A stretch of DNA of 64,000 bases, from positions 6,719 to 70,718 of the forward strand of contig JAAYRL010000019.1 in NCBI GenBank assembly GCA_012518795.1. Reading direction: 5' to 3'. A program made the position numbers and the translations under genes. Under the pieces are notes generated by a model. That model ran no database searches, was not told where the DNA came from, and worked only from the letters and a program-made list of their open reading frames with translations. How positions within the stretch are numbered: position 1 is the stretch's first letter; the number at the start of each line of letters is the position of its first letter. Below, piece after piece: positions 14,545 through 64,000 of this stretch. This DNA comes from Clostridiaceae bacterium. GTDB lineage: Bacteria; Bacillota; Clostridia; Saccharofermentanales; DTU023.

Positions 14545-15175
14545 ATTTGGCTTGCACACTTTTTAAGGTTGTCCCGGATTTTCGCGGTACAGGCTTAAAT
14601 AGTGTGCATGCCCTTTGGTTAAATCGACTTTTCTGAGTTGCATATGCACACTTTTTAAGGTTGTCCCGGATTTTCACTGTACAGGCTTAAATAGTGTGCA
14701 TGCCCCTCGGTTAAATCGACTTTTTCGAGTTGCATATGCACACTTTCTAAGCTTGTCCCGGATTTTCGCGGTACAGGCTTAAATAGTGTGCATGCCCCTT
14801 GGTTAAATCGACTTTTTCGAGTTGTATATGCACACTTTTTAAGCTTGTCCCGGATTTTCGCGGTACAGGCTTAAATAGTGTGCATGCCCCTCGGTTAAAT
14901 CGACTTTTCTGAGTTGCATATGCACACTTTTTAAGCTTGTCCCGGATTTTCGCGGTACAGGCTTAAATAGTGTGCATGCCCCTCGGTTAAACCGACTTTT
15001 TCGAGTTGCATATGCACACTTTCTAAGCTTGTCCCGGATTTTCGCGGTACAGGCTTAAATAGTGTGCATGCCCTTTGGTTAAATCGACTTTTCTGAGTTG
15101 CATATGCACACTTTTTAAGGTTGTCCTGGATTTTCACTGTACAGGCTTAAATAGTGTGCATGCCCTTTGGTTAAA
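14545..15175. repeat. Array of seven 92-bp direct repeats, each containing a hairpin with a stem of about 21 bp
   Basis: GCACAC unit anchors lie at 14554, 14646, 14738, 14830, 14922, 15014 and 15106, an exact 92-bp period. The arms are ATGCACACTTT(T/C)TAAG(G/C)TTGT and ACAGGCTTAAATAGTGTGCAT. The loop is CCCGGATTTTC(GC/AC)(G/T)GT. Confidence 0.95.
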
Positions 15176-51323: not shown

Positions 51324-53318
51324 TCAGTGTTTGTATACTTTCACAATGATTATGCCCACACATAGAATCAGTGCTGATGCAATAAGCCATAACAACCCGG
51401 ATGTGCTAGCTTTTATCTGAGAAGGATCAAAACTATCCGGCATTTCAGACATCTGCGAAAAATCAAAATCATCAGGTATTTCGGGTATCTCTTCATTCTG
51501 AGAAGGATCAAATCCTTCTGGCGCTGTGCCTTCAAAGAAGCTACCCTTTTCTCTCGGTATATCCTGCATACTGCCTACCATTCCCATAGAACCCATTTCA
51601 GACAGTGTCAGACCTGAAGCATCAACATAGTTCATGTTTGCGCTCGTCTGATTATTGGCAAGCTGGGCACTTATGCTTTCTGTTCGCAAGGTACAAAACT
51701 GTCGCAGAGTTTCTACACCGGTTTCAAATTCGTTATATTCATAGAATGCTGTCGGATCTTTTTCTACATAGGATTTGATCAAATCATATGTATCGTTGAT
51801 ACAACTCAGGATGTCCACAGAATTCAAAAACTCCGTGAAATACTGATGGTACAGTTCAGTATATTCCTCATTTGCCACAATCCAGTTCCACATAGGACGA
51901 TCAGCGGAAGAAGCGCCTGATACCGGAGAATCAATAGGTGTGTTTACGGTACTCTGTGCATTTCCACTCTGAAAGGTACCGAATGCCAGATTGTAATCCC
52001 AGGGGATCATAGCCATCTGTCCATCTTGCTCATACAGATAATAATTATGCACCATAGCTCCTGTGTAACTGTCGCCATTACAGACATAGTTATGTACGAC
52101 AAAATATCGAATAACTTGGTCTATATCTACTACTGAATCAATTGTTTCTCCGTTGGTCAGCTTTTTTAATGATTCAATCAAACGAGTCTGATCGGCTTTC
52201 ACGATGTCGGTCTTGGCGTTGTCCCAGATATTAAGATAACTGTCAATATTATCGTCAATATACTGAAGCTTTATATCAGACGAACCTATACCTTGAGCGA
52301 AACCGCCTTTTTTATTCTGCATATTTTCTCTATCAGGCATAAACTCGTTCTTCATTTCCGGCAAATCCGATATATTCGGCATATCCTGTATATTCGGCAT
52401 CGGCATCCGAGGCATATCTTGCAGATCTTGTAGATCAGGCATATCTTGCATATCCTGCAGATCAGGCATCCGAGGCATTTCAGACATTGGAGGTATTGTT
52501 ATCCCTTGTTCAGAAATATCAGGAATATCAGACATATCAGGATTATCAGGAATATCTGACATATCAGGAACATCAGAAATATCAGGAATATCAGGAATAT
52601 TAGGAATATCAGACATATCAGGATTCTCCGCATCTTCGTCACGATTCAGAAAATCATTCATCTTAAACCCCCTGCCGTTTCCTCGACCTCCACCGAAGTT
52701 CATACTGTCAGGTTTATACAATTCTCCGTAGTTCGAACCGTAATTTCGTTCAAGAAAAGCTTCTTCAATGCCTTCTACTGCAAGGTATAAACCCCAATCC
52801 TCACCGTTGACCGTAATATACACAAAACTGCACAAAGGAGTATTGACTCCAAATTCTTTCATCATAGTGTAGCTCAGATAGTCTTTCATCATAGTTGTAT
52901 CATGAATTAAATTATTCAGATTCAATTTATCAAGTCCGTAATAGGTAAGGGAACTATCATATCGGTCAAATTCAATTTTAAAACTGTAACGTTCACTGTT
53001 CTTGGCAGCAACACTGGAAAGCGAAGTATTGCCTTTTCCGCGAATACCCGCGTTTTTAAAGGCTTCACCGTCGATCACCAGGTTTGTTACGTAATACTCT
53101 TCATCCACAGCATCAGCGATAAACTCATCCCAGTTATTCATGACAATATCTATGGTATGAACTCTTGTATTATCAAACAGACTATTTTCATATCCAATAG
53201 CACGCGGTGTGACTTCAACACCCAGTGCTACACCCTGATTCATAAACAGAACAGTAAGCAGCAATATCAATACAGTAAAGGTCCATGCAATTTTGTCAAA
53301 ATGTTTACTTCCCGACAT
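51324..53318 (-). CDS. CotH-family (atypical kinase fold) protein, membrane-anchored, with acidic PD/MPD repeat insert
   Basis: It has CotH-like blocks (NLVIDGEAFKNAGIRGKGNTS, YSFKIEFDRY, LNNLIHDTTMMKDYL, WDYNLAFG), an N-terminal signal or TM segment and a C-terminal TM helix. The start was moved to the ATG at 53318, 4 nt after the DUF4956 stop. Confidence 0.75.
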   Translation of the reverse strand: MSGSKHFDKIAWTFTVLILLLTVLFMNQGVALGVEVTPRAIGYENSLFDNTRVHTIDIVMNNWDEFIADAVDEEYYVTNLVIDGEAFKNAGIRGKGNTSLSSVAAKNSERYSFKIEFDRYDSSLTYYGLDKLNLNNLIHDTTMMKDYLSYTMMKEFGVNTPLCSFVYITVNGEDWGLYLAVEGIEEAFLERNYGSNYGELYKPDSMNFGGGRGNGRGFKMNDFLNRDEDAENPDMSDIPNIPDIPDISDVPDMSDIPDNPDMSDIPDISEQGITIPPMSEMPRMPDLQDMQDMPDLQDLQDMPRMPMPNIQDMPNISDLPEMKNEFMPDRENMQNKKGGFAQGIGSSDIKLQYIDDNIDSYLNIWDNAKTDIVKADQTRLIESLKKLTNGETIDSVVDIDQVIRYFVVHNYVCNGDSYTGAMVHNYYLYEQDGQMAMIPWDYNLAFGTFQSGNAQSTVNTPIDSPVSGASSADRPMWNWIVANEEYTELYHQYFTEFLNSVDILSCINDTYDLIKSYVEKDPTAFYEYNEFETGVETLRQFCTLRTESISAQLANNQTSANMNYVDASGLTLSEMGSMGMVGSMQDIPREKGSFFEGTAPEGFDPSQNEEIPEIPDDFDFSQMSEMPDSFDPSQIKASTSGLLWLIASALILCVGIIIVKVYKH

Positions 53319-53322
53319 CTCT

Positions 53323-54015
53323 TTACCCCATGTAGTCGCCGTTATACGAGACAAGCACTGCACTGTTTACACCGGGAATTTCGGAAATAATACCTATAAA
53401 ATCAGTATTATCCTCCTTCAGCCGGACTTCGATATTTAATTCAACAGCACCTTTAACGGCTGATTTACTCTTAACAATACTCCGGGTTACATTCTTATCC
53501 AGGAAATCTTTAACTCTGATTTCTACATCATGATTTACGCAATTCAACACAAGCATATAAGGAAAAGTATTTGACTTTTTATTAACAAATACCAGTAATA
53601 TTAAACCGATGCAGACACTGCCGATAATAGCCAGTGGAATCATACCGGCTGCAAGGATAATACCTGCACCTATAGCCCAGAATAAAAAGGCAATATCCAG
53701 CGGTTCTTTGATAGCAGTACGGAAGCGAACAATCGAGAGCGCACCTACCATGCCAAGTGACATAACCACGTTTGACGTAACGGCTAGAATAACAATGGAG
53801 GTAATCATGGTAAGAGCAATCAGCGTGGTGCCGAATCCGGAGGAATACATCACTCCGCGGTAAGTCTTCTTGTAAACCAAAAAAATAAACAGTCCTATAC
53901 CGAAAGATAATACAATGGTCAGCAACATATCGAGGATGCTGACAGAAGTTACATTTTCCAGAAAACTGGACTTAAAAATATCGTTGAAATTCATTAGAAA
54001 AAATTTATAATTCAT
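53323..54015 (-). CDS. DUF4956-like membrane protein
   Basis: 230 aa. It has four or five TM helices and a soluble C-terminal domain. Its N-terminus and its partnership with a VTC-domain gene are typical of DUF4956. Confidence 0.65.
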   Translation of the reverse strand: MNYKFFLMNFNDIFKSSFLENVTSVSILDMLLTIVLSFGIGLFIFLVYKKTYRGVMYSSGFGTTLIALTMITSIVILAVTSNVVMSLGMVGALSIVRFRTAIKEPLDIAFLFWAIGAGIILAAGMIPLAIIGSVCIGLILLVFVNKKSNTFPYMLVLNCVNHDVEIRVKDFLDKNVTRSIVKSKSAVKGAVELNIEVRLKEDNTDFIGIISEIPGVNSAVLVSYNGDYMG

Positions 54016-54044
54016 TAGTGAAAATTCTCCTTTTAATAGTGTTG

Positions 54045-54716
54045 TTATTCATACATACGGGAAGCGGCGTATTTTGAGAAAGCCATACTCCTCCTGCCTT
54101 CAAGTTGTATTGCATCTTTAATAATATCGGGCAGATAGTTGTCCCACTTTACTTCAAGAATACCTGGGGAATCCTTGATTGGAACAGTTACACATTCGGG
54201 ATTCAGGAAATCTGTACATCTCAGTCCGGTGCGGATTTGGTAGTCCAAGGTTACTCTTGCATTTCCCGGACTGAAAACAAAAGGCTCACGGGTAAATTCC
54301 ACAATTACTTTCGCTTTCAATCCTTCACGGAGAATGCAGGTATAAAAACCGGAAATTAACTCATCAGTACTGTCTGCCAGCCAAGCAACATCCCCATCGG
54401 CAATAGATTGTGCTTGCTCCGGACTTAAAGCCGATATTTCCTTATAACTAAGACTGCCTCGCTTATACTTGCGTTCAAGATAAATGACGGATGGATCGTT
54501 ATTATACAAACGTATTCGGTATTTTTCACGTTTGTTTATCCCATTCAATTTTTCCAGAAGCACCTTATCCGCAAGATTGTCAAAGTATAAGCTGCGGACT
54601 TTATATTGTCCGTTCATGGCATGGCTGTCCGGCTTCAAGACCACCCTTAATCTTTGGCGTAAGATCAGCAGGTCAAATTGACTGATTTCATGTTTTACTT
54701 CGTGTCTGAATTGCAA
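54045..54716 (-). CDS. VTC-domain (polyphosphate-polymerase-like, triphosphate tunnel) protein
   Basis: 223 aa. The N-terminus FRHEVKHEIS, KVRSLYFD and ...RIRLY... are typical of bacterial VTC-domain proteins. The start is a TTG with a GAAGGAG RBS. Confidence 0.65.
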   Translation of the reverse strand: MQFRHEVKHEISQFDLLILRQRLRVVLKPDSHAMNGQYKVRSLYFDNLADKVLLEKLNGINKREKYRIRLYNNDPSVIYLERKYKRGSLSYKEISALSPEQAQSIADGDVAWLADSTDELISGFYTCILREGLKAKVIVEFTREPFVFSPGNARVTLDYQIRTGLRCTDFLNPECVTVPIKDSPGILEVKWDNYLPDIIKDAIQLEGRRSMAFSKYAASRMYE

Positions 54717-54927: not shown

Positions 54928-56151
54928 TTAAAAACGAGCAATAAATCGGATGCTTTCAGCAGATGTATATTCTGCAATCAGCTTACCGCCAAACTTTTCA
55001 CAAATAGCTCGTGCGGCTGAAAGACCTATACCATAACCGGATGACTCTATGTCTTGTGTTCGCGCAGAGTCATCTCTGTAAAATCGTTCAAATAATCGCT
55101 CCGGATCCGTCGTCTTAAGTGACGGATCACAGGTATTTTCTTGGATAATTTGGACGTGTCTGCCCTTTTTTTGCAAAGTCAAATAAATACTGCCCTCATC
55201 CGGTGTATATTTAACTGCATTATCCAGAAGAATTGTCAACAGTTGTTGAAAGCTATCTTTGTTAATCATCAACGAAACATCTGACTCAATACATACATGG
55301 AGTCCGAGATTGCGAGATTTGGCAGCATCCTCATAGTCAGATAAGAGCCTACTTGTAAGTTCACTAATATTAACCAACTCAGTTAACAAAGGAATTTCTT
55401 CATCCAGCTTAGCGAGAATAAGCAGATTAGACATCAGGACATTAAGTCTTTTTGTTTGTGTGCGAATGTGTACGTTGTATTTATTCTCACCATGGATTAA
55501 TGCCATCGTATCATTATTTGACTGAATAATAGCCAAAGGTGTTTTCATTTCATGTCCGGCATTCGTAATAAACTGTTTTTGCTTTTCCATCCCTATAAGA
55601 ACCGGACGAATAACCTTGTCCGAAAGCAGTATTACTATTATCAGGAGAATTAACCAACAAAGTACTGCAATCACACCCGAAACAAATAAGACCATTAAAA
55701 AACTTTCAGTTTGTCCTGATACGTCCATAAAAAAAGTCAGACGGCTTGTTCCTATTTCCTTTACGAAATATTTAAAACCTTCCATTTTTCCGGATTCTCT
55801 GCCTGTTTTCCGAACTTCTAAAGCATAATCTTGGGCAGTTTCATCATCGATTGAGGAAATTTGGTCTGTATTCACATCCTTGATATTACCGTCAGAATCA
55901 CTTAGTACAATAAAAAATCTGGAAGAACGCATCCTGTCCATATTCAGCGGGCGTAAAAAAGGAGGAGGCCGATTAAAATCCATTTTTTGAAATCTGCCAT
56001 TAGAATCAACCAGTATCTTCATTTCCAGATCTGACTGTCTCTCTAATATTACCCAATTAAGTCCGTTAATTGTAATTACGATAAAAAGCAAAAGACAGCT
56101 AACCGCCGTCATGGTGAAAAAAATAAATCTTTTCTTTAATGCTTTCTTCAT
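54928..56151 (-). CDS. Sensor histidine kinase (two TM helices, HisKA plus HATPase_c)
   Basis: It has the H-box NAGHEMKTPL, an N-box LLDNAVKYT and a G-box GYGIGLS. It overlaps the response regulator stop by 4 nt. Confidence 0.9.
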   Translation of the reverse strand: MKKALKKRFIFFTMTAVSCLLLFIVITINGLNWVILERQSDLEMKILVDSNGRFQKMDFNRPPPFLRPLNMDRMRSSRFFIVLSDSDGNIKDVNTDQISSIDDETAQDYALEVRKTGRESGKMEGFKYFVKEIGTSRLTFFMDVSGQTESFLMVLFVSGVIAVLCWLILLIIVILLSDKVIRPVLIGMEKQKQFITNAGHEMKTPLAIIQSNNDTMALIHGENKYNVHIRTQTKRLNVLMSNLLILAKLDEEIPLLTELVNISELTSRLLSDYEDAAKSRNLGLHVCIESDVSLMINKDSFQQLLTILLDNAVKYTPDEGSIYLTLQKKGRHVQIIQENTCDPSLKTTDPERLFERFYRDDSARTQDIESSGYGIGLSAARAICEKFGGKLIAEYTSAESIRFIARF

Positions 56152-56822
56152 GATGAAATTTCCAATTTATATCCGATGTTCCGTTTCGAGATGATCTCCA
56201 CCTTGGAATTCATGGCGGAAAGTCGCTTACGCAAATAAGAAATATAAAGCCAGACACTGTTTATGTCTGTATCTGTATTATATCCCCATGCTTTGACAAG
56301 TAAATCCTCCGTAGACAAATACATCGTATGATTCAGCATAAGCTGTTCCATAAGACGATATTCCTGCCTGGGCAATTGAAAAGACATATCCCTCACGCTA
56401 ATTTCACCTGACTGCATATTTAACTTTAAGTCCCCAAAGCAGATTAAATCGGGATGATATTCTTCCCGTCTTCGTAGCATAGCACGAATTCTGGCAATCA
56501 GTTCACCCATATCAAAGGGCTTCGGCAGGTAATCATCCGCTCCGGTATCCAGACCGTGAATACGATCTTCCACCTGCGTTTTCGCCGTCAAAAGAATCAC
56601 AGGAGTTCTACATCCGTTTCTGCGTAAATCGGAAAGTACTTCCAATCCGTCTCGTTTAGGCATCATAATATCGAGAATAATTCCGTCATAATCACCCGTT
56701 ATGGCATAATTATAAGCAGCATCTCCATCATATACGGCATCAACTATATACTTATGATAAGTAAGATAATCTACAACCGCTTCGGATAGAGCCGGTTCAT
56801 CTTCAGCATATAATAGCTTCAC
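56148..56822 (-). CDS. OmpR/PhoB-family response regulator
   Basis: It has a receiver domain (DEP...D.MMPKRDG..T.K) and a winged helix. The start was moved to the GTG at 56822, which has a GGAGG RBS at 7 nt. Confidence 0.9.
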   Translation of the reverse strand: MKLLYAEDEPALSEAVVDYLTYHKYIVDAVYDGDAAYNYAITGDYDGIILDIMMPKRDGLEVLSDLRRNGCRTPVILLTAKTQVEDRIHGLDTGADDYLPKPFDMGELIARIRAMLRRREEYHPDLICFGDLKLNMQSGEISVRDMSFQLPRQEYRLMEQLMLNHTMYLSTEDLLVKAWGYNTDTDINSVWLYISYLRKRLSAMNSKVEIISKRNIGYKLEISS

Positions 56823-56987
56823 CAATACACCTCCCAGCAGATTAATTGTATTCGGATACATACATATTTATTTTGTCTTTTATTCGTATAATACAACATC
56901 AAACTAAGATAAACTTATGAAAAAATACATAGCTTTGCAAACCGAATTTATCTAAAGAAATAATTTACGAGTACCTAGATCAAAAAA

Positions 56988-57536
56988 TCAAACCATCGGA
57001 GGAATAAATAAATTCAAAAATACCCAAACTGACAAATTAAAAGTGTCAACCAAAGCATGGGCAATGATACAGTGCCGCAGGCTGCCTGATTTAAGAAAGG
57101 ACAAAGACCACAGCGTCCCCATAATAAGAAGAGGCATCAACATCATGCTACTTCGAATAGTAACGGAAAATACACCCCACATTAAAAAGTGACTGAGAGT
57201 AAACATCAAGGTGGAATAAGCGATATTAGCAGTTTTTCCCCAAGGCAGTCGAGGCAGCAACCACGCACTCCAGAACAATTCTTCCATCACTGGATTGACA
57301 AGGATAAAAACGATGGATAGTACTGTGAGCAGCGGGGTTATAGTGATTACTTTCAAGCCCATGACAAAAGCCACCAAAGTGAACATCGCCGGGATATACG
57401 CTATTAATTGCCAAGCTAAACTACCATTGGGTTTTTTCATTATTTTGAAAAAGCTTGCCTTGTCCGGTTTAACCACATAAATGATTGAAAACCAATATAC
57501 CAGCGCAAGGGGAATAAAGGCCCAAGCACCAATCAA
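56988..57536 (-). CDS. CPBP (CAAX) family intramembrane metalloprotease, possibly 5'-truncated
   Basis: It has the motifs EELFW, FTLSH and HALVD. The only start is a TTG with no RBS, directly abutting the pncA stop region. Confidence 0.6.
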   Translation of the reverse strand: MIGAWAFIPLALVYWFSIIYVVKPDKASFFKIMKKPNGSLAWQLIAYIPAMFTLVAFVMGLKVITITPLLTVLSIVFILVNPVMEELFWSAWLLPRLPWGKTANIAYSTLMFTLSHFLMWGVFSVTIRSSMMLMPLLIMGTLWSLSFLKSGSLRHCIIAHALVDTFNLSVWVFLNLFIPPMV

Positions 57537-57578
57537 GATGTATTAAGGGAATTATAGATTTTAGTTTATGTAGCTCTA

Positions 57579-58139
57579 CTAAATAATTGAGCCACCCTTA
57601 TCGGCTACTTCTTCAAGTGCATCTGAACCGGGAGTCACCGGTGTGGTCAAATCTTTGAAAACCCGCACTTGATAACCTAAATAGAGTCCATCCAGAGCAG
57701 TGGCTTTCACACAATGGTCTTCCGCAATACCGAGAATATCAAGTTCATTAATTTCATTCGTTTTCAGGATTTCATCAAGTGATTTTCCGCTTTCTAAATC
57801 TACTCCTTGGAATCCACTATAATCGGGACGCCCCATACCTTTTACAATATGTATTTGAATAAAATCGGTATCCAAGTTCGAATGATATTCTGCACCGGGT
57901 GTCTCCTGGACACAATGTACCGGCCAAGTATCTACATAGTCCGGTGAATCGCTAATATGTCCACCATTACTGTTTTCCGGCTCATGCCAATCCCGGGTGG
58001 CGAGAATCAGATCATATTTTCTTGCATTTTCTTTTAAGAATTCTGTTGTTTTCTTAACTACTTCGGCACCGCCGTTAACAGCAAGACTGCCACCTTCACA
58101 AAAGTCTACTTGCTCATCTACAATAATTAAAGCTTTCAT
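57579..58139 (-). CDS. pncA: Nicotinamidase/pyrazinamidase (isochorismatase fold)
   Basis: It has LIIVDEQVDFC, HCV with the catalytic Cys, and WPVHC metal-site-like residues. Confidence 0.8.
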   Translation of the reverse strand: MKALIIVDEQVDFCEGGSLAVNGGAEVVKKTTEFLKENARKYDLILATRDWHEPENSNGGHISDSPDYVDTWPVHCVQETPGAEYHSNLDTDFIQIHIVKGMGRPDYSGFQGVDLESGKSLDEILKTNEINELDILGIAEDHCVKATALDGLYLGYQVRVFKDLTTPVTPGSDALEEVADKGGSII

Positions 58140-58495
58140 GAATCTTCCTCTTAGAATATTTTATTATTTATTTATTTCCTTTCAGAAACAGAATTGGTTC
58201 TCTTAGCAAAATATTATACTAAATCACCAGTTGATGTTCATAATATTATTATATTGGTTGATACATTTTGTACAAGATTTGATTATTATGACAGGCTTAT
58301 TTTTAACCTTAAACTAAAAAACAACCTGGACAACAAATAAATATAGCCGGCCTTGCAGAAGATCTTGGCGCATTGAAGGCATGCCCTCCGGAGCAAGTGG
58401 TTTTATAACATCCAATCAATAGTTGAAACATCTTAACATACAAAAAACATAAACCGGAATATAATCATCTGTTACCATATAAATGGAATCAAACG

Positions 58496-59143
58496 TTATT
58501 TTACCTTTTGTTTGTATTCCCGATAACCTGCAAGCTCATTTTCGAGAAATTCTTCTTCACCTTTAATTCTCTTAGCAATAATAAATGGGTAAAATAAAAA
58601 AATTAAAAATGAATATATTGAGCCCAAGATAAGTGGTATTGTTAAAAATAAAAGTACCGTTACACTGTACATTGGATGTCTGACAATACCATATAAACCA
58701 GTATCAATAACCTTTTGTTTTTCCTGCACTTCAATGGTACGGCTAAGATATGTATTTTCTCTAAGTATTTCCAGATAAAGGATATATGCCAGAAGAAATA
58801 CCACAACAGCACTGATGGTAATTCCTTTGGGTAAAATATACCAATCAAAGCGATATCCAAGCCCTGCGATGATAAATCCAGCTAAAAACATAACTCCACT
58901 AAGTTTCACTACTAAGTTTTGTTCTTTTTGCTCTTCTTTTGCATTTAGTCGTTTTTTTAACAATTCAGGATTTTTGAACATCATTATAAGTCCTGTAAGG
59001 AACATCGGTACAAATAAAACAGCCATAAACAACCAACCGTTCAGAAAGGAAAAGGTACCTGCCGGTAGGAATATTAATAAACCTACTAGAACAACACCTA
59101 ATATAAACTTTGTTATTGCTTGAAAGAATAAGTTAATATTCAT
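58496..59143 (-). CDS. Isoprenylcysteine carboxyl methyltransferase (ICMT/PEMT) family membrane protein
   Basis: It is polytopic. The segment GLYGIVRHPMY is the family signature. Confidence 0.75.
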   Translation of the reverse strand: MNINLFFQAITKFILGVVLVGLLIFLPAGTFSFLNGWLFMAVLFVPMFLTGLIMMFKNPELLKKRLNAKEEQKEQNLVVKLSGVMFLAGFIIAGLGYRFDWYILPKGITISAVVVFLLAYILYLEILRENTYLSRTIEVQEKQKVIDTGLYGIVRHPMYSVTVLLFLTIPLILGSIYSFLIFLFYPFIIAKRIKGEEEFLENELAGYREYKQKVK

Positions 59144-59412
59144 TAAAATTCCTTTAGTTTGAAATTCATCTGCATTTGTTAATTCAAATTGATTTCTTCA
59201 AATATTTCTTTGCTGAGATAAATTCAAAGAAAGCAAAGAAGGGGCTGGCTCAGAATTTTGGGCTGTGCAAATTCTCATTTGTACAACGCCGAATAGTGAG
59301 CAGTTTTCATGGTTGAGCCACCGGTTTCTGAGGCATCCCTTCTTATACCTACGGACCAAATGGACAACACAAAAATATCCTCTCAAAATTGTTGAATATT
59401 GTTGAATAAAAT

Positions 59413-60540
59413 CTAATCGTAGCGCGAGGCTCTTCCGCCGTCACCTCGCCCTTCTTCCATCATTCCGAACGTCTCAACGAAAAAGGTTCGGAATCTAAGA
59501 TTGTATTTGTCCGCAATAATATCGAGTGCATCTTCAACAATATCCGCCATGACATGTGAATCGGCAACCGCACGCGCGTTAATGACAAGTGAAATTGCAC
59601 TGTAGGGCTGTGTCAATTTTTGGTCATATTCAACATCATAGTCGATGCCGATCAGGCTCGCTTTAACAAAATCGTTACCCTCACCTGCTGCGAATGCTTT
59701 CAAATGCGGAACGTTACTATCACTTACTTTCAGACCCTTGCGAACTTGATTGAAAAGGTCTGCAATAACTTCATTAAAATCAATATTTTTATCATTTCTT
59801 TCTTCAAAGAACACACGGCGATTATACCAGCTCAACAAATTTTCAGCGGCAATAAACGCATCTGAGCCGTAACCGATTTCGCGATGGACGGCTGCAGCTT
59901 TGTGGGTCAGCAGGTATTCAACAACTTCCTCAACGCCTTCACCTGTAAGAGCGGACATCGTAAAGACCGGCGTATCCGGGAAAGAAGCTTTGATAAACTC
60001 AACACGTTTTTCTTTTTCCTCCGCACTGATCAAATCTACTTTATTTAACACAATGATATCGGCTTCAGCCATTTGTGCTTCAAGTAAGAAACGCATCTCC
60101 GCCGGCAGATTGATTTGTTCCGCTTCAGGCATCAGCATGCGCATACGTTCGGGGTCGACAATACAGGTGAAAGGCATCAAGTCAAACTCTCCGGGCCTTC
60201 GCTCTTTAAGCTGAATATAAACGTGTTCAAGCGCCCCGATGCCGCATCCGGGAATATCGGACATGATAACCGTAGCACCTTGATCAACCAATTGATTGAG
60301 CTTATCAACAAGATTTTCATGCTGATAACAAATACAGTCGCCTGCAATCTGTGTTGTCAATATATCAGTCGTTGCTGTAAAGCTGGCATCAACAATATTA
60401 TCTGCACCGAGGTCATTGACGAGAATGGCCGCTTTTCCATAACGTTTGTCTATTATATTTCCGAATGCAATCATTGAAGTCGTTTTTCCTGCTCCCAAGA
60501 ACCCGCTTGTTACCATATACTTTGCTTTTGCTTGTGACAT
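59413..60540 (-). CDS. G3E-family (CobW/HypB/UreG-like) P-loop GTPase with an uncharacterised C-terminal domain of about 180 aa
   Basis: It has the Walker A GFLGAGKTT, a DIPGCG segment, the guanine-specificity motif NKVD and a GDCICY remnant of the CxCC metal motif. The start was moved to the ATG at 60540, which has a GGAGG RBS at 7 nt. Confidence 0.75.
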   Translation of the reverse strand: MSQAKAKYMVTSGFLGAGKTTSMIAFGNIIDKRYGKAAILVNDLGADNIVDASFTATTDILTTQIAGDCICYQHENLVDKLNQLVDQGATVIMSDIPGCGIGALEHVYIQLKERRPGEFDLMPFTCIVDPERMRMLMPEAEQINLPAEMRFLLEAQMAEADIIVLNKVDLISAEEKEKRVEFIKASFPDTPVFTMSALTGEGVEEVVEYLLTHKAAAVHREIGYGSDAFIAAENLLSWYNRRVFFEERNDKNIDFNEVIADLFNQVRKGLKVSDSNVPHLKAFAAGEGNDFVKASLIGIDYDVEYDQKLTQPYSAISLVINARAVADSHVMADIVEDALDIIADKYNLRFRTFFVETFGMMEEGRGDGGRASRYD

Positions 60541-60722
60541 ATTAATTCCTCCGTTTATCAATTAATTATTTCCTCTGTTTTTATCTCCTGTTTTTATCCT
60601 CAGTTGTTATCCTCTGCTGATATCTTCTTTTATGTTATCATGTAAGACTTTTCCCCCGTTAGATATCTTCTTCAAAAACTATAAGCATATCGTTTTCATG
60701 GATTCGATATCTTTTTCCCAAG

Positions 60723-62060
60723 CTATCGGTAAAGGGTTTTTCCGGTATCTGAACTCAAGTTATAACTGCAAAATGGAATGAGTTTGCCTTCCGAAGAAAC
60801 TACTTGAATATAGCAACGGCGAAGTCTGTTCAGATCCATCGTATACGCATCCTGAAAGGCCATGCCGGAAATCGCAAGGGTTGTATTCTGCCGCTCCATT
60901 AAAAATTTGTCCAAGTATGAGACATCGATAGAACTTGTTTTTTCTGAAGGAACAATCTCTTCGGGAATCGTCCATTTACTCGCAACGACCATTCTGGCTT
61001 GATCACTTGATATACCGCAACTGCACCCTTCGTCACTACTGAGAAGTGTCCATTTGCCATCTTTCACAATATAATTCGCATGAAATCCGCAGAGCGGATG
61101 TTCGGCATTGGAAGGCAAAAAGTCAGTCTTTTTCAGTTTTCTGTCTGTCTGCTGTTCAATTATATTAAACAACTCGGGGAATGTGATTCGTGCATCTTCT
61201 CCTGCAGAATATCTGCCAAAAAGAGAAATCGGTTGGAAGTGAACTCCGCGCACAACAGGCATGTTGTCAGCAGCAAAGCTCAGTATAGCTCCAAGTTGAT
61301 CATCATTTGCACCCTTCATTACTGTCGGTACAAGAACAACCCCGATATGAGCTTCCCTGCAACGTTGCACTGCACGGAACTTGTCTTCAATGACAGAGCG
61401 TCCTCGCAGCGCAAAGTTTGCTTTATCGGAAAAGCCGTCGAATTGCAAAAACACAGTTGAAAGTCCTGCTTCTTTAAGTTCTTCTATATATCCAATCTCA
61501 TTAGCTATGCGCAAACCGTTCGTATTAAGTTGAAAAAATGAAAATCCCTTTTCTTTTCCTAAACGGATGATTTCAGGGAGATCATTACGCATCGTCGGTT
61601 CGCCGCCGGAGAGCTGGATATTGAATGGGCCGCCATTATCCATCAGCATATCATACCAACCGGCAATCGTAGTAAGATCTGGATCTTCGACAGTGTGTTC
61701 ACCGCCGGAAGAAGCAAAGCAGATTGGACAGCCAAGATTACAGCGCTGTGTCACCTCAATTAATACACAACAAGTTTTCTGCAAGTGGTTTTCGCAGATA
61801 CCGCATCCGTATGGACAATCACTTTTGAAATCCGGTTCATCGACAACACGAGTCTTCCATTTAAGAAAGCCAAGCGGATTGTCCCACACAAAAACACAAA
61901 AATCACCATGATCGGGACAAATCTTTTCAAGAAAGACTCCATCTGTACCCGCCGTATAACGTGCGTCAATCCTTTTCAGGCATACAGGACAAACACTCTT
62001 CGTTTCAGACAAAAGAACACGGTTGCCCTTTCCGACTTCGCGACTTGGTGTAGTTTTCAT
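60723..62060 (-). CDS. Radical SAM enzyme with an N-terminal rubredoxin/zinc-ribbon-like module and an extra Cys cluster
   Basis: It has the CX3CX2C motif CNLGCPIC. The N-terminus has CPVC...CPDH followed by CPYGCGIC..H. C-terminal cysteines are present (CSC, FCSYN). Confidence 0.8.
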   Translation of the reverse strand: MKTTPSREVGKGNRVLLSETKSVCPVCLKRIDARYTAGTDGVFLEKICPDHGDFCVFVWDNPLGFLKWKTRVVDEPDFKSDCPYGCGICENHLQKTCCVLIEVTQRCNLGCPICFASSGGEHTVEDPDLTTIAGWYDMLMDNGGPFNIQLSGGEPTMRNDLPEIIRLGKEKGFSFFQLNTNGLRIANEIGYIEELKEAGLSTVFLQFDGFSDKANFALRGRSVIEDKFRAVQRCREAHIGVVLVPTVMKGANDDQLGAILSFAADNMPVVRGVHFQPISLFGRYSAGEDARITFPELFNIIEQQTDRKLKKTDFLPSNAEHPLCGFHANYIVKDGKWTLLSSDEGCSCGISSDQARMVVASKWTIPEEIVPSEKTSSIDVSYLDKFLMERQNTTLAISGMAFQDAYTMDLNRLRRCYIQVVSSEGKLIPFCSYNLSSDTGKTLYR

Positions 62061-62184
62061 CTAAAGTACCTCTTTCTTCTTTGATTTTAGCAGAAAGTAA
62101 CTCTGCGTTCTTTTCCTTTCCTCAAACTTACTTTGCATGTCTAAAATAGCTTGCCTTTATTCAGTTGACAAATACACCAGGTTT

Positions 62185-62445
62185 TCCGAGTTGGATTTGC
62201 ACACTTTCTAAGGTTATTCGAGAATTTAGGCAGTACAACCTTAAATTCTGTGCAAAACCTTTAGTAAAACCAGGTTTCCCGAGTTGGATATGCACACTTT
62301 CTAAGGTTATCCGACAAATTCATGGTACAACTTTAAATAGTGTGCATATATATTGAAAAAATTGGGTTTGCCAGGCTGCCCATGCACACTTTCTAAGCTG
62401 ATGCAGGATTTCCTCGGTCCAACCTTAAAAAGTGTGCATATATTA
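62185..62445. repeat. Three diverged copies of the same hairpin repeat family of about 92 bp seen at 14545-15175
   Basis: GCACAC anchors lie at 62199, 62292 and 62383. The arms TGCACACTTTCTAAG and CTTAAA.AGTGTGCA are conserved while the loops are diverged. They share the CGAGTTGGAT.TGCACAC lead-in. Confidence 0.85.
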
Positions 62446-62660
62446 TAATTTGAAATTAATTTTCAGTTTAAATTACAATTCTATCCATTGCTAAGAATTC
62501 TGACAGAAAAAATAAAAATAATCTATCCTTTTATTTTAATGTTATAAATTTTACTTTTTTATTGTTTCAGCCAATACACTAATTCAAAATCTAATCTTCA
62601 TCGCTACCAACATCTGCAAAGAGCGTCGGAACGAGTAGCCGCCGGAGCTCCCTTCTAGCG

Positions 62661-63491
62661 TTAGAACGAGTGGCCGCCGGAGCTCCCGCCGCCTCCGCCT
62701 CCTCCGCCTCCGCTGTCGCTTCCGCCGCCGGATGATGAATCGGAGTGGCGTTTCTTTTTTTGTGATATCATCTTCGAATTTACATTTTTGATAAAATCGG
62801 TTTTGTCCTTGTAACCACCTTTAATTACCTGATTCTTGTCAATCTTCTTAATCGAAACATTCCTCTTCCTGTTAAATAACACTCGCAAGAAGTTCAACAA
62901 GAGCCCGAGGCAAGCAGCCATGAGTACATTTGTCACATGTCTCATCGGTGTAGATATCTTTCCACCCTTCAGGAGTATGAGAACTTGGTTGAAAGCCTCG
63001 TTTGCACATTCAAAATACTTCTCGTTGCTAGCATATTTATAAATATTATCTGCAATCTCGTTTGATCTTGTGTTGTTTATCGTCTTTGCAAATTTACCGT
63101 CCGAGTAGAACTGAATCATTCTGTTGTCCATGTCGATCAGAAATAGTGTTCCCGACTGCTCGCCAAAAAGTGTGAAATATATGCTTTTTGCATATTTCTC
63201 CGCAGAATAATCATTTTCGAGGATGGTAATAAAAGCAGCATGCCCGTACTCTGTCACGGTTTTCATATTCTCAAGCAAGTGCTCCTTTTCACTTTCGCTG
63301 AGAAGCTCTGCAGAATCGTCGATTACGACCATATTGCCGTTATCGGCAGTATACTTTAGCATTGTCTCCCCAATTGTATCCCCAATTGTCTCTCCAATTG
63401 TCTCACCAGACGCGAAAGCGGGAATTGCGGAATTAAACATAAGCATAAATGCAAGCAAAATTATTGCTGCATATCTTATTTTATTTCCCAT
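62661..63491 (-). CDS. TPM-domain (YgcG-like) protein with signal peptide, TM helix and Gly/Ser-rich tail
   Basis: It has a signal peptide ending AFASG and GETI repeats. A TPM-like core (VVIDDSAELLSESEKEHL...) is followed by a TM helix. The C-terminus reads SSSGGGSDSGGGGGGGGGSSGG. Confidence 0.7.
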   Translation of the reverse strand: MGNKIRYAAIILLAFMLMFNSAIPAFASGETIGETIGDTIGETMLKYTADNGNMVVIDDSAELLSESEKEHLLENMKTVTEYGHAAFITILENDYSAEKYAKSIYFTLFGEQSGTLFLIDMDNRMIQFYSDGKFAKTINNTRSNEIADNIYKYASNEKYFECANEAFNQVLILLKGGKISTPMRHVTNVLMAACLGLLLNFLRVLFNRKRNVSIKKIDKNQVIKGGYKDKTDFIKNVNSKMISQKKKRHSDSSSGGGSDSGGGGGGGGGSSGGHSF

Positions 63492-63948
63492 GATCTGCGC
63501 CCTCCCTTCTGAAGAAGTCCGGCACCGGTCTGGTGGTCAGATAGTTCAAATAGTTTATCATTGAAACCATATTCGCCAGCATTCCAAGCAAACAGAGAAT
63601 AGCCATTCCGTAATACCAATAATCGTATACGGGATTTTTGATTCCTATTAACAGTCCTATTCCGAGTACAATTATTCCAATCAGCATCGGTATGAAAGCT
63701 GTCTTCTTTTCTATTTTTCTAGATCTGCTCGTCGTCTTTATGAAAAGTATAATCTGGATGAGCAACGCTATCGCATAGACTACCAAGTTAGTCATCTTCC
63801 TGCTTTTATCATAAATTACCATTAATACCAAAAACACGACCGTTGCAAATATTATGATTCCGAATAGCGTTCCCAATATGACTCTCATCCATTTGGGTAA
63901 TTTTGTTTTTTCCTTTTTCTGTGTCCGTTTTCCTTTCTTGATATTCAC
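63481..63948 (-). CDS. Hypothetical polytopic membrane protein (start uncertain)
   Basis: It has four hydrophobic helices and overlaps the TPM gene start by 11 nt. The frame stays open upstream of the GTG at 63948 to the window edge, so the true start may lie outside the window. Confidence 0.5.
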   Translation of the reverse strand: MNIKKGKRTQKKEKTKLPKWMRVILGTLFGIIIFATVVFLVLMVIYDKSRKMTNLVVYAIALLIQIILFIKTTSRSRKIEKKTAFIPMLIGIIVLGIGLLIGIKNPVYDYWYYGMAILCLLGMLANMVSMINYLNYLTTRPVPDFFRREGADHGK

Positions 63949-64000
63949 ATTTCCTATATCAAAAATATGATTCTCCCTGTAGTAGATATTAGAAATTTCG

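Follow-up and report, generated by a model that had tools for sequence, protein, structure and literature searches.

Which enzymes are served by the GTPases of the G3E/COG0523 type? To our knowledge these proteins are widespread, and client enzymes are known for very few of them. The locus examined here raises the question in a specific form, since in the window (the whole 64-kb stretch of DNA that was analysed) a gene for a G3E-type GTPase lies next to one for a radical SAM enzyme. An earlier note on this DNA had taken the pair for an uncharacterised radical SAM enzyme with a GTPase dedicated to it, and had seen in it a bearing on bacterial membrane-spanning lipids. What the adjacency suggests is a new pairing of a helper with its client, and not the synthesis of membrane lipids.

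All the motifs that had been listed for the radical SAM enzyme were found in the minus-strand open reading frame, and its features are as follows:

60723-62060, minus strand: gene for a TrsS-family radical SAM enzyme, 445 aa, Cys form (NCBIfam NF045646, Pfam and 7TOL matches)
61908-61991, minus strand: rubredoxin-like zinc-ribbon motif CPVC...CPDH, C24-X2-C27-X20-C48-X2-H51 (checked in the translation)
61785-61817, minus strand: N-terminal auxiliary [4Fe-4S] motif CPYGCGICENH, C82-X3-C86-X2-C89..H92 (checked in the translation)
61719-61742, minus strand: radical SAM cluster motif CNLGCPIC, C107-X3-C111-X2-C114 (translation and Pfam)
60762-60863, minus strand: C-terminal auxiliary-cluster region with M400, C416 (RRCYIQ) and C431 (PFCSYN) (HMMER alignment to 7TOL)

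The protein has a place in a curated and named family, TrsS, scoring 567.7 bits against the NF045646 cut-off of 490 with residues 19-445 aligned to positions 2-441 of the 441 in the model (NCBIfam). Pfam recognizes Radical_SAM (E=4e-22; PF04055, 79.4 bits, the cut-off being 29.5) and Zn_ribbon_HMPTM (E=3e-17), a homologue search returned thousands of full-length relatives, and those 87% identical to the window's enzyme carry the TrsS label in NCBI records. The family is attributed to Haft & Tolstoy (2025, mSystems) by a paper that cites it (PMC13188914). NCBIfam names TrsS and ArsS both as ‘(seleno)protein’ families; because the open reading frame in the window has no in-frame TGA, it encodes the Cys form and not a selenoprotein, and no Sec-containing TrsS was present among the loci fetched. 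The placement in the MJ0619/GDGT-MAS branch was borne out by a match to 7TOL (MJ0619 GDGT-MAS; E=1.6e-86) and by identical spacing of the rubredoxin, N-terminal and radical SAM motifs. Subclassification with curated models nevertheless puts the protein above the cut-off for TrsS and below that for Tes, the Tes model NF045702 giving 351.7 bits against 450 (residues 20-346 on model positions 2-336 of 486). By its motifs, TrsS would hold a rubredoxin-like metal site and three [4Fe-4S] clusters, i.e. the N-terminal, the radical SAM and a C-terminal one with a labile Met, the C-terminal ligands being assigned by alignment alone (query residues 389-435 against 7TOL chain residues 448-494, HMMER). 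Its chemistry is probably radical, acting on unactivated carbon via a cluster-bound intermediate.

The neighbouring gene shows the following features:

59413-60540, minus strand: gene for a G3E/COG0523-like GTPase, 375 aa plus stop (Pfam cobW, AF2/Foldseek)
60478-60504, minus strand: Walker A (G1) motif GFLGAGKTT, invariant in alignment A1
60325-60342, minus strand: GDCICY, a degenerate CxCC metal motif with C69 and C71 and a Tyr in the place of the last Cys, conserved across context types
60244-60261, minus strand: Walker B/switch II motif SDIPGC with the conserved Cys99 (alignment and translation)
60034-60045, minus strand: G4 motif NKVD (guanine specificity), conserved in alignments
59455-59904, minus strand: C-terminal alpha/beta domain, residues 213-362, with an invariant PHLK (HxK) in strand beta-2 (AF2 and alignment)
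59416-59454, minus strand: predicted-disordered, conserved C-terminal tail EGRGDGGRASRYD (pLDDT <50)

The longest open reading frame (59413-60561) starts at a TTG, and homologues begin with MSQAKAKY, which corresponds to the ATG at 60540 with GGAGG before it. The description of the protein as a G3E GTPase with a degenerate CxCC stands, as judged by the G1, G3 and G4 motifs, the CICY and a match to Pfam cobW (PF02492; residues 16-191, 65.4 bits against a cut-off of 20.7, E=6e-18); thousands of full-length homologues were again retrieved, and the AF2 model (pLDDT 85) has YjiA as its top Foldseek match over the full length (E=2.6e-12). No NCBIfam model was reached at its cut-off, scores falling short for, among others, the CobW-related selenoprotein (NF041053, 41.9 against 180), ZigA (NF038288, 34.8 against 600), CobW (TIGR02475, 35 against 332), HypB (31.8 against 121) and MeaB (20.9 against 329). 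Nearly every member keeps GFLGAGKTT, SDIPG and NKVD (SKCE replaces NKxD in the distant, type A locus L007), with small variants of the Walker A in representative sequences (GSGKTT in three, GGFLG in one). CICY, found where COG0523 proteins have CxCC, recurs in loci of context types A, B and C, with CICF in L007, and two distant homologues (L009 and L010) still have GGCFCC. GDCICY aligns to GCICCS of YjiA, and the YjiA-type ligand set (E37, C66, C67) is partly kept, with V41 for the Glu and Y72 for the last Cys. The window's GTPase has four cysteines (C69, C71, C99 and C126), of which C69, C71 and C126 are invariant in alignment A1 and C99 is nearly so; L007 has neither C99 nor C126.

The C-terminal domain, described earlier as unassignable and about 180 aa long, measures about 165 aa (residues 213-375) and looks like a divergent CobW-type domain. 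Although Pfam gave no match to it even at E<=1, and no PF07683 (CobW_C), a distant homology is suggested by its predicted topology (beta-alpha-beta-beta-beta-beta-alpha-beta in the AF2 model) and by a weak Foldseek match to YjiA (E~0.016), found along with weak matches to M20 dimerisation domains. The invariant RxKG in beta-2 of COG0523 C-terminal domains (PMC13001444) is replaced by HxK. A profile of the domain, run against 1.84 billion representatives, matched only 175 clusters, all full-length matches (~350-390 aa) carrying it at their C terminus, and the conserved tail EGRGDGGRASRYD is shared by loci of context types A and B and by some of type C. By sequence, the GTPase is a member of a previously undescribed, small and distinct subfamily of G3E proteins derived from COG0523.

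Between and upstream of the two genes lie:

60541-60722, minus strand: intergenic spacer, 182 bp, with GGAGG as ribosome-binding site ahead of the GTPase's ATG
62176-62441, no strand assigned: three ~92-nt units repeated in tandem, each with inverted-repeat arms that could form a hairpin, upstream of the TrsS start

The gap of 160 bp given in the earlier note holds to within a base pair when measured to the TTG (161 bp), and becomes 182 bp when measured to the likely ATG. No terminator-like site was predicted on the minus strand of this spacer, and the genes may be co-transcribed; elsewhere the gap is ~70 bp (L001 and L086) or ~12 bp with the gene order reversed (L007). The hairpin repeats do precede the pair, as had been described, and their motif also forms a 7-copy array with a 92-nt period at 14552-15122 (12 matches, where chance would give 0.04).

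The adjacency, whose absence from every other genome would have led the earlier note to abandon it, proved recurrent when viewed from the side of the GTPase. Sampling yielded 44 non-redundant clusters, 32 of them with usable flanks, and a radical SAM gene adjoins the GTPase in 26 of these 32 loci: 15 are TrsS-like (a lone TrsS in 5, two TrsS-like radical SAM genes clustered with the GTPase in 10) and 11 are arsenite-methyltransferase::ArsS (ArsM::ArsS) fusions, the remaining 6 having no radical SAM neighbour. The pairing persists despite differing gene orders and flanks and spans two phyla or more, with examples in Clostridia and in Eggerthellaceae. In the closest relatives (GTPase 92% and TrsS 86% identical) the pair is flanked by a wholly different set of genes than in the window, which argues that the pair moves as a unit. 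Compared to type B loci, the window's GTPase is 66-73% identical, whereas the adjacent TrsS-like enzymes are only ~36% identical; MbdU-like DUF5714 and C_GCAxxG_C_C proteins also adjoin the GTPase there, and DUF5714 does so in some type C loci. The GTPases linked to ArsM::ArsS (47-57% identical) lie immediately upstream of the fusion, whose ArsS part passes its own cut-off (360 bits against 300), and such fusions, each with a GTPase, were found in MAGs of Eggerthellaceae and on metagenome contigs from gut and rumen. In the literature that could be searched, no GTPase partner of ArsS came up. Since ArsS lacks the zinc ribbon of TrsS, no single metal site common to the clients is evident, and as the C-terminal domain of the arsenic-linked subgroup contains two additional cysteines, both missing in the window's protein, the cargo may differ between subgroups. 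Two otherwise solitary GTPase genes have an ArsR-family regulator directly upstream.

A different picture emerged from the side of TrsS, where none of nine sampled loci (enzymes 52-71% identical to the window's) carries the GTPase, so that TrsS must work without it in most genomes. In five of the nine, the neighbours are a DVU_1556-type methyltransferase, a DVU_1553-type AMP-ligase, a C_GCAxxG_C_C protein and a MOP-like molybdenum enzyme (hydroxylase), a ‘usual TrsS neighbourhood’ that we define from the sampled loci and not from a published criterion; none of these neighbours occurs anywhere in the 64-kb window. TrsS::methyltransferase fusions (P0173, P0177) and methyltransferase-TrsS pairs were seen among the homologues, the methyltransferases being weakly similar to ArsM-type models. 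The notion of a GTPase dedicated to one multi-cluster enzyme has therefore to be given up, as the same family adjoins ArsM::ArsS fusions and is missing from most TrsS loci sampled.

We consider it somewhat more likely than not that TrsS and the GTPase form a conserved, self-contained module in which the GTPase is an optional, GTP-driven hand-over factor of a metal or metalloid for radical SAM enzymes. The recurrent adjacency is observed directly, as are the family memberships and the conservation of the motifs; physical interaction, co-transcription, GTP-coupled transfer and the nature of the cargo we infer, the transfer in the following form. In its GTP state the GTPase would hold a thiol-loving metal or metalloid on C69 and C71 (CxC) and on C99 in switch II, the divergent CobW-type C-terminal domain and the tail would dock it on the radical SAM enzyme, and GTP hydrolysis would release the cargo to that enzyme. 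Candidates for this cargo are Fe or Zn destined for a protein site, and soft metalloids such as As(III). A link to metals or metalloids is suggested by the ArsM::ArsS partners, by the ArsR-family regulators ahead of two solitary GTPase genes, and by the MbdU-like DUF5714 and C_GCAxxG_C_C proteins beside the GTPase. Against a hand-over factor count the nine TrsS loci without GTPase, the six GTPase loci without radical SAM neighbour, the missing zinc ribbon of ArsS along with the only partly kept YjiA-type ligands, the lack of the two extra cysteines in the window's GTPase, and the 182-bp gap, with which co-transcription is less than certain.

The same observations can be read in other ways. That TrsS is a bacterial membrane-spanning lipid synthase akin to GDGT-MAS, its mononuclear iron site or clusters being loaded by the GTPase, as the earlier note had it, would fit the strong match to MJ0619, the four cofactor motifs kept together with the labile Met, a Tes-type chemistry that joins inert alkyl termini (PMC9433317), and TrsS partners that act on carboxylic acids (the AMP-ligase, and a methyltransferase that resembles BioC and Mtf2). 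However, the Tes score stays below its cut-off over a model aligned at positions 2-336 of 486 only, the stretch linking the radical SAM core to the C-terminal cluster region is ~47 residues shorter in TrsS than in MJ0619, ArsS, without a rubredoxin domain, adjoins the same GTPase family, and no lipid-synthesis genes were present in more than 40 gene contexts inspected. Moreover, Mss is the confirmed bacterial maker of membrane-spanning diabolic-acid lipids, in genomes without a detectable Tes homologue, and Tes homologues are absent from the lipid producers examined (PMC13159169). We therefore regard this reading as very improbable, and the substrate of TrsS is probably not an archaeal-type lipid; given the failed Tes cut-off and the absence of lipid genes beside TrsS in the sampled loci, the finding has, on present evidence, no bearing on bacterial membrane-spanning lipids. 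The adjacency might, on the other hand, be meaningless, the GTPase being a paralogue of COG0523 for general metal homeostasis, as could be argued from the six solitary loci, some behind ArsR-family regulators and next to transporters, and from the nine TrsS loci that do without it; yet a radical SAM gene beside 26 of 32, across phyla, gene orders and flanks, and a C-terminal domain restricted to a small GTPase family make this improbable.

Two further readings keep the functional link and alter its nature. The GTPase could be a GTP-driven carrier that brings As(III), or a soft metalloid like it, to radical SAM enzymes which use it as the substrate for a bond with carbon, with ArsS as one client and TrsS as a second, Tes-like one, joining for instance arsenic to an alkyl terminus. 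Consistent with this are the compact GTPase and ArsM::ArsS modules (11 of 32 loci), the TrsS::methyltransferase fusions and pairs, which mirror ArsM::ArsS, the weak ArsM-type similarity of these methyltransferases, the ArsR-family regulators, the common ‘(seleno)protein’ naming of TrsS and ArsS, and the few conserved cysteines, which would suit binding of As(III) by three thiolates. Still, the window pair and its closest relatives have no adjacent methyltransferase or ars gene, the two extra cysteines typical of the ArsS-linked subgroup are missing, the usual TrsS neighbourhood centres on a molybdenum hydroxylase and not on arsenic genes, and the G3E proteins we know of (UreG, HypB, CobW, MeaB, ZNG1) deliver cofactor metals, not substrates. 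We thus hold this reading to be unlikely, if the least so of the alternatives, and are slightly more doubtful that the family represents a first G3E ‘metalloid chaperone’ for As(III)-like cargo in gut and fermenter anaerobes, with TrsS, a Tes-like enzyme made for attack on inert alkyl termini, as a second carbon-metalloid enzyme beside ArsS that perhaps makes the alkyl-arsenic bond of arsenolipid-type compounds. Alternatively, the GTPase could act as a protective chaperone or a scaffold: a MeaB-like gatekeeper or HydF-like carrier that gates cofactor loading or repair of the radical enzyme, or receives the organometallic product of that enzyme, with no simple insertion of a metal ion. MeaB is a G3E member servicing a radical (AdoCbl) enzyme and its model weakly matches the GTPase, radical SAM enzymes are the only client class common to all contexts, conservation is much higher in the GTPase than among its clients, and HxK replaces the self-activating RxKG, so that GTP hydrolysis may need a partner. 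As opposed to this, TrsS and ArsS have no corrinoid domain, the conserved CxC and switch-II Cys would point to direct binding of metal as in HypB and COG0523 proteins, and we know of no precedent for a G3E protein as a product scaffold, leaving such a role with a slim chance.

By the position of its genes, a single compact and sequence-distinct GTPase subfamily is here tied to one clear class of candidate clients, the TrsS- and ArsS-type radical SAM enzymes, and the client question thereby becomes directly testable with two-gene constructs. In many bacteria of guts and fermenters the genes of this family neighbour those of radical SAM enzymes, some of which modify arsenic. The finding offers a handle on TrsS, a large Tes-like family of bacterial enzymes without known reaction, and the GTPase-linked ArsM::ArsS fusions in gut-associated DNA bear on microbial arsenic transformation there.

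Compared to known systems, the window's TrsS retains all four metal-site motifs of Tes/GDGT-MAS (PDB 7TOL, 7TOM): the spacing of the mononuclear iron site (C9X2C12X20C33X2H36; PMC9433317) is identical, the [Fe4S4]N ligands C73/C77/C80 and His are matched by C82/C86/C89/H92, and the labile Met439 aligns to M400, by a numbering offset worked out from the alignment and that paper, with the C-terminal Cys motifs also kept, whereas the Cys preceding this Met is a Gly, the protein is shorter, the host is bacterial and lipid genes are not nearby. Tes itself is further marked by a pair of hydrophobic pockets that bind lipid and by biphytanyl C-C coupling. Like the COG0523 metallochaperones (YjiA, ZigA, CobW, ZNG1, Nha3), the GTPase joins a P-loop G-domain to a C-terminal alpha/beta domain and has a metal motif at the CxCC position; it differs in having CxCY there, in its conserved Gly/Arg-rich tail, in an extra conserved Cys in switch II, which may resemble the Cys ligand that HypB has there, and in adjoining radical SAM enzymes, whereas the metallochaperones are Zur-regulated or accompany B12 genes. 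HydF with HydE/HydG and MeaB with methylmalonyl-CoA mutase provide examples of a GTPase as the dedicated partner of a radical enzyme, by analogy only, since HydF belongs to a different class of GTPase and MeaB serves a B12 enzyme. With the ArsM/ArsS arsenosugar pathway the window has the GTPase family in common, TrsS standing in place of ArsS and ArsM being absent, and in comparison to the usual TrsS loci it carries the G3E GTPase instead of the usual neighbours.

The pair consists of two minus-strand genes, with the radical SAM gene upstream:

60723-62060, minus strand: radical SAM gene (TrsS), 445 aa, upstream member of the pair
59413-60561 as listed (TTG start), ATG at 60540 preferred, minus strand: GTPase gene, 375 aa, downstream member

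Because all GTPase homologues start at a position corresponding to the ATG at 60540 (MSQAKAKY...) and a GGAGG ribosome-binding site precedes this codon, we place the start there, which gives a protein of 375 aa and a gap of 182 bp to the TrsS gene. Every motif that an earlier note, made by a model reading the sequence alone, had quoted for the two proteins was found in their translations. On the coding strand of the two genes, no terminator-like site was predicted in the gap, and Rfam models searched over 56000-64000 (E<=1) matched no riboswitch or leader near the pair. The GC content of the pair is 44% against a window mean of 37%; since adjacent genes reach 41-42%, composition is uninformative as to horizontal transfer. 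Elsewhere in the window, genes for a CotH-kinase-domain protein (679 aa), a DUF4956 membrane protein and a VTC-domain protein follow one another (51324-54716), adjoined by a two-component system (54928-56861).

The hairpin-repeat array said to lie ahead of the pair is indeed there: a ~92-nt unit whose arms can form a hairpin is repeated three times in tandem (62176-62441) upstream of the TrsS gene, and the same unit forms a seven-copy array at 14552-15122. Each unit bears the hairpin-capable motif ATGCACACTTT(C/T)TAAGGTT and its complement, a motif matched 12 times versus 0.04 expected by chance. We rejected a CRISPR array as the identity of these repeats, since such an array would have a shorter period and would not be conserved to this degree over the entire unit. 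Separate from the 92-nt array is a 31-nt direct repeat (62622-62687) whose copies, 90% identical and 35 nt apart, span the 3' end of a TPM-domain gene, the first lying within the stretch that codes for the Gly/Ser-rich C-terminus and the second just past the stop codon.

The radical SAM protein has an N-terminal Zn_ribbon_HMPTM domain and a Radical_SAM core (Pfam). The earlier note had likened it to the tetraether synthases (Tes) and had proposed profile-HMM subclassification, which assigned it to TrsS and not to Tes: it scored 567.7 bits against the NCBIfam equivalog ‘radical SAM (seleno)protein TrsS’ (NF045646, cut-off 490) in an end-to-end alignment, and 351.7 bits against the Tes model (NF045702, cut-off 450), which aligned over the first three quarters of the protein only. 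By the curated cut-off the protein is thus not a Tes. The family is already named (Haft & Tolstoy 2025, as cited in PMC13188914), and 87%-identical proteins from Saccharofermentanales and Clostridiaceae MAGs carry the TrsS label at NCBI already. In-frame TGA codons in the TrsS-like, ArsS, GCAxxG and DUF5714 genes of the loci fetched from other genomes were ordinary stop codons only, with no selenocysteine among them. A role in membrane-spanning-lipid synthesis, raised in the earlier note, is disfavoured by the score below the Tes cut-off and finds no support in the gene context. Nor do we retain the identification of TrsS with Mss, the known bacterial membrane-spanning-lipid enzyme, as Mss came from genomes without a detectable Tes homologue.

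Seen from the GTPase, the adjacency to a radical SAM gene, which the earlier note had singled out for checking in other genomes, is conserved. When genome contigs were scanned with the full-length GTPase alignment, generic P-loop matches drowned out the rest and the true relatives were L006-L010 alone, five of the fetched loci; restricting the pattern to the C-terminal domain removed this problem in a metagenome scan, which returned 80 specific loci. A panel of neighbour proteins served to score the metagenome and genome-scan loci by tblastn, and the loci were then collapsed at 95% GTPase identity into 44 clusters, 32 of them with usable flanks. The counts below come from metagenome contigs chosen by sequence patterns, a sample that is not phylogenetically controlled.

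Gene contexts of the GTPase in clusters with usable flanks
Type A: GTPase beside a lone TrsS (the window's type), 5/32 clusters
Type B: GTPase in a larger two-radical-SAM cluster, 10/32 clusters
Type C: GTPase beside an arsenite methyltransferase::ArsS fusion, or beside both as adjacent genes, 11/32 clusters
None: GTPase without a radical SAM neighbour, 6/32 clusters

Gene neighbourhoods retrieved for two GTPase homologues showed that in the closest relatives TrsS is followed by the GTPase amid flanks unrelated to those of the window. The larger cluster of other relatives runs from a methyltransferase through a first TrsS-like radical SAM enzyme, a DVU_1553-type AMP-ligase, TrsS, a 63-aa Cys-rich protein, a Sir2 deacylase, the GTPase and a C_GCAxxG_C_C protein to DUF5714 and a distant HgdB-like protein; a literature search on DVU_1553-1556 gave nothing. 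The GTPases are far better conserved than the proteins encoded beside them, with 66-73% identity between window and type B loci as against about 36% for the adjacent TrsS-like enzymes. In the type C partner, the ArsS half scored 360 bits (equivalog cut-off 300) and carries DUF3641. Type A and type C loci alike are compact two-gene modules amid unrelated genes, and ArsR-family regulators precede two solitary GTPase genes. In one genome locus (L008:9899-13446) and across L123-L165 (e.g. L135:9347-12511), the GTPase is followed by a ~675-aa arsenite methyltransferase::ArsS fusion with DUF3641, a module hosted by Eggerthellaceae MAGs and by gut and rumen metagenome contigs. The 63-aa protein between TrsS and the Sir2 deacylase (L004:7042-7233, with counterparts in about 20 type B loci) is conserved and has a GLCC motif; it matched no Pfam or NCBIfam model, and may resemble small redox-disulfide or ScdA_N-like domains.

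Pfam recognizes in the window GTPase the cobW/HypB/UreG nucleotide-binding domain alone (residues 16-191), and no NCBIfam model came near its cut-off (best, CobW-related selenoprotein, 41.9 bits versus 180). The G1 (GFLGAGKTT), G3 (SDIPG) and G4 (NKVD) motifs are kept in nearly all members of the family. As the earlier note had observed, the CxCC motif is degenerate: its position, which aligns to GCICCS of the COG0523 protein YjiA, reads G[DN]CICY, the final Cys being Tyr in almost all members and Phe in one (L007), while GGCFCC is retained in distant relatives of MAG origin (one MAG of Halobacteriales, one of Actinomycetota). The window protein has four cysteines only (C69, C71, C99 and C126), with C99 in switch II (PGCG); among close relatives C99 is nearly invariant and the other three fully so. 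The ArsS-linked subgroup has two additional cysteines in the C-terminal domain (NARAVCES, TECFG), both missing from the window GTPase, and for this reason the cargo may differ between subgroups. One homologue (L106:4871-5872) seems split, its N-terminal part lying outside the ORF that holds residues ~104 onward, and may be a pseudogene or reflect an assembly error.

The C-terminal domain, which the earlier note could not assign, has indeed no Pfam match on its own at E<=1. The AlphaFold model of the GTPase (pLDDT 85, pTM 0.84) places after the G-domain a beta-alpha-beta-beta-beta-beta-alpha-beta domain and then a disordered tail, with YjiA as the best full-length PDB match (E=2.6e-12). Searched alone with Foldseek, the domain gave weak, generic ferredoxin-like matches (top, M20 dimerisation domains, E=8.6e-4, TM 0.43), and its match to YjiA was likewise weak (E~0.016). 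Searched against 1.84 billion representative proteins, its profile matched just 175 clusters; full-length matches are ~350-390 aa with the domain at the C-terminus, and shorter ones are mostly fragment-like. COG0523 C-terminal domains have in common one motif without variation, RxKG, a built-in arginine finger located in strand beta-2 (2026 preprint, PMC13001444), whereas the second strand of the domain in the present family has an invariant PHLK, i.e. HxK; a conserved Gly/Arg-rich tail (GNGGRASRY) follows the domain. From this topology and the HxK at the RxKG position, we read the domain as a probable divergent, enlarged CobW-type domain that would have lost the arginine finger.

Seen from TrsS the picture is different. 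None of nine TrsS homologues 52-71% identical to the window enzyme had the GTPase nearby (0/9); it is therefore an optional accessory for a subset of TrsS systems. Five of the nine loci (L166, L167, L168, L169 and L171) share a recurrent neighbourhood with a MOP-like molybdenum enzyme of the xanthine-dehydrogenase family (~913 aa), a ~780-aa iron-sulfur flavoprotein (Fer4_20/FAD/CCG), DUF7479, a C_GCAxxG_C_C protein (in three of the five encoded by a gene that runs into the start of TrsS), a methyltransferase and an AMP-ligase; two others have only an upstream methyltransferase, and two are solitary. TrsS is thus part of a wider system, and this context suggests a molybdenum-hydroxylase-linked pathway or maturation system; none of these recurrent partners occurs in the window. 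The methyltransferase and AMP-ligase are sometimes fused together or to TrsS, which argues for the three acting jointly on one substrate: TrsS::class I SAM methyltransferase fusions are 650-670 aa and methyltransferase::AMP-ligase fusions ~610 aa (proteins P0173, P0177, P0179, P0188, P0193 and P0200; loci L169:8388-10220 and L171:8344-10182). The Fusibacter TrsS neighbourhood includes XdhC and a MocA-like gene, and a histidine-phosphatase-family gene (His_Phos_1, ~190-205 aa) adjoins TrsS in three otherwise different contexts (L166:10720-11337, L172:4207-4782 and L174:4146-4736).

G3E proteins (UreG, HypB, CobW, MeaB, ZNG1) bind and hydrolyse GTP to hold a metal and pass it to a client. The window GTPase has retained, where the canonical metal motif lies, a thiolate-rich site, to which switch II adds a cysteine; the recurring neighbour across its contexts is a radical SAM enzyme, TrsS being the sole conserved partner in the window; and among its relatives, some are encoded after ArsR-type sensors and next to ArsM::ArsS, MbdU-like and C_GCAxxG_C_C proteins. 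In light of this precedent, site and context, we favour, with moderate confidence, a model in which the GTPase would hold a thiol-loving metal or metalloid and transfer it, in a GTP-dependent manner, to its radical SAM client.

Two kinds of cargo would fit such a hand-over. Delivery of a protein cofactor (Fe, Zn or a cluster) is favoured by the fact that most TrsS genes manage without the GTPase, a pattern often seen for back-up metallation factors, and by the lack of a methyltransferase in the window; the partnership with ArsM::ArsS and the parallel methyltransferase fusions speak instead for a metalloid. The ArsS partners also weaken the proposal of the earlier note that the chaperone is dedicated to a multi-cluster architecture as such, and, as ArsM::ArsS proteins have no zinc ribbon, specific loading of the TrsS zinc-ribbon site loses weight as well.

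No Pfam or NCBIfam model covers the GTPase subfamily, its HxK-type C-terminal domain or the pairing with TrsS-like or ArsM::ArsS enzymes. A literature search on ArsS turned up no paper with the term GTPase, one combining COG0523, G3E and radical SAM gave general metallochaperone papers, and neither search brought up a description of this pairing. What we propose for the function of the pair draws on sequence, predicted structure and gene neighbourhood.

For the radical SAM enzyme, the nearest solved structure is the Tes MJ0619/GDGT-MAS (7TOL, E=1.6e-86), in which a rubredoxin site (C9X2C12X20C33X2H36), an N-terminal cluster (C73/C77/C80 and a His) and a C-terminal cluster with the labile Met439 have been described (PMC9433317). 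Window TrsS has the same rubredoxin spacing (C24X2C27X20C48X2H51), a matching N-terminal cluster motif (C82X3C86X2C89 and H92), a radical SAM motif (C107X3C111X2C114) and a methionine, Met400, that aligns to Met439; the RRC and PFC(S/T)YN motifs are common to both proteins. It differs from MJ0619 in that the segment ahead of the C-terminal cluster region is ~47 residues shorter and the Cys preceding the labile Met is replaced by Gly. On the strength of the matching ligand motifs, it is very likely that TrsS shares its four cofactors with GDGT-MAS and works by a related radical mechanism.
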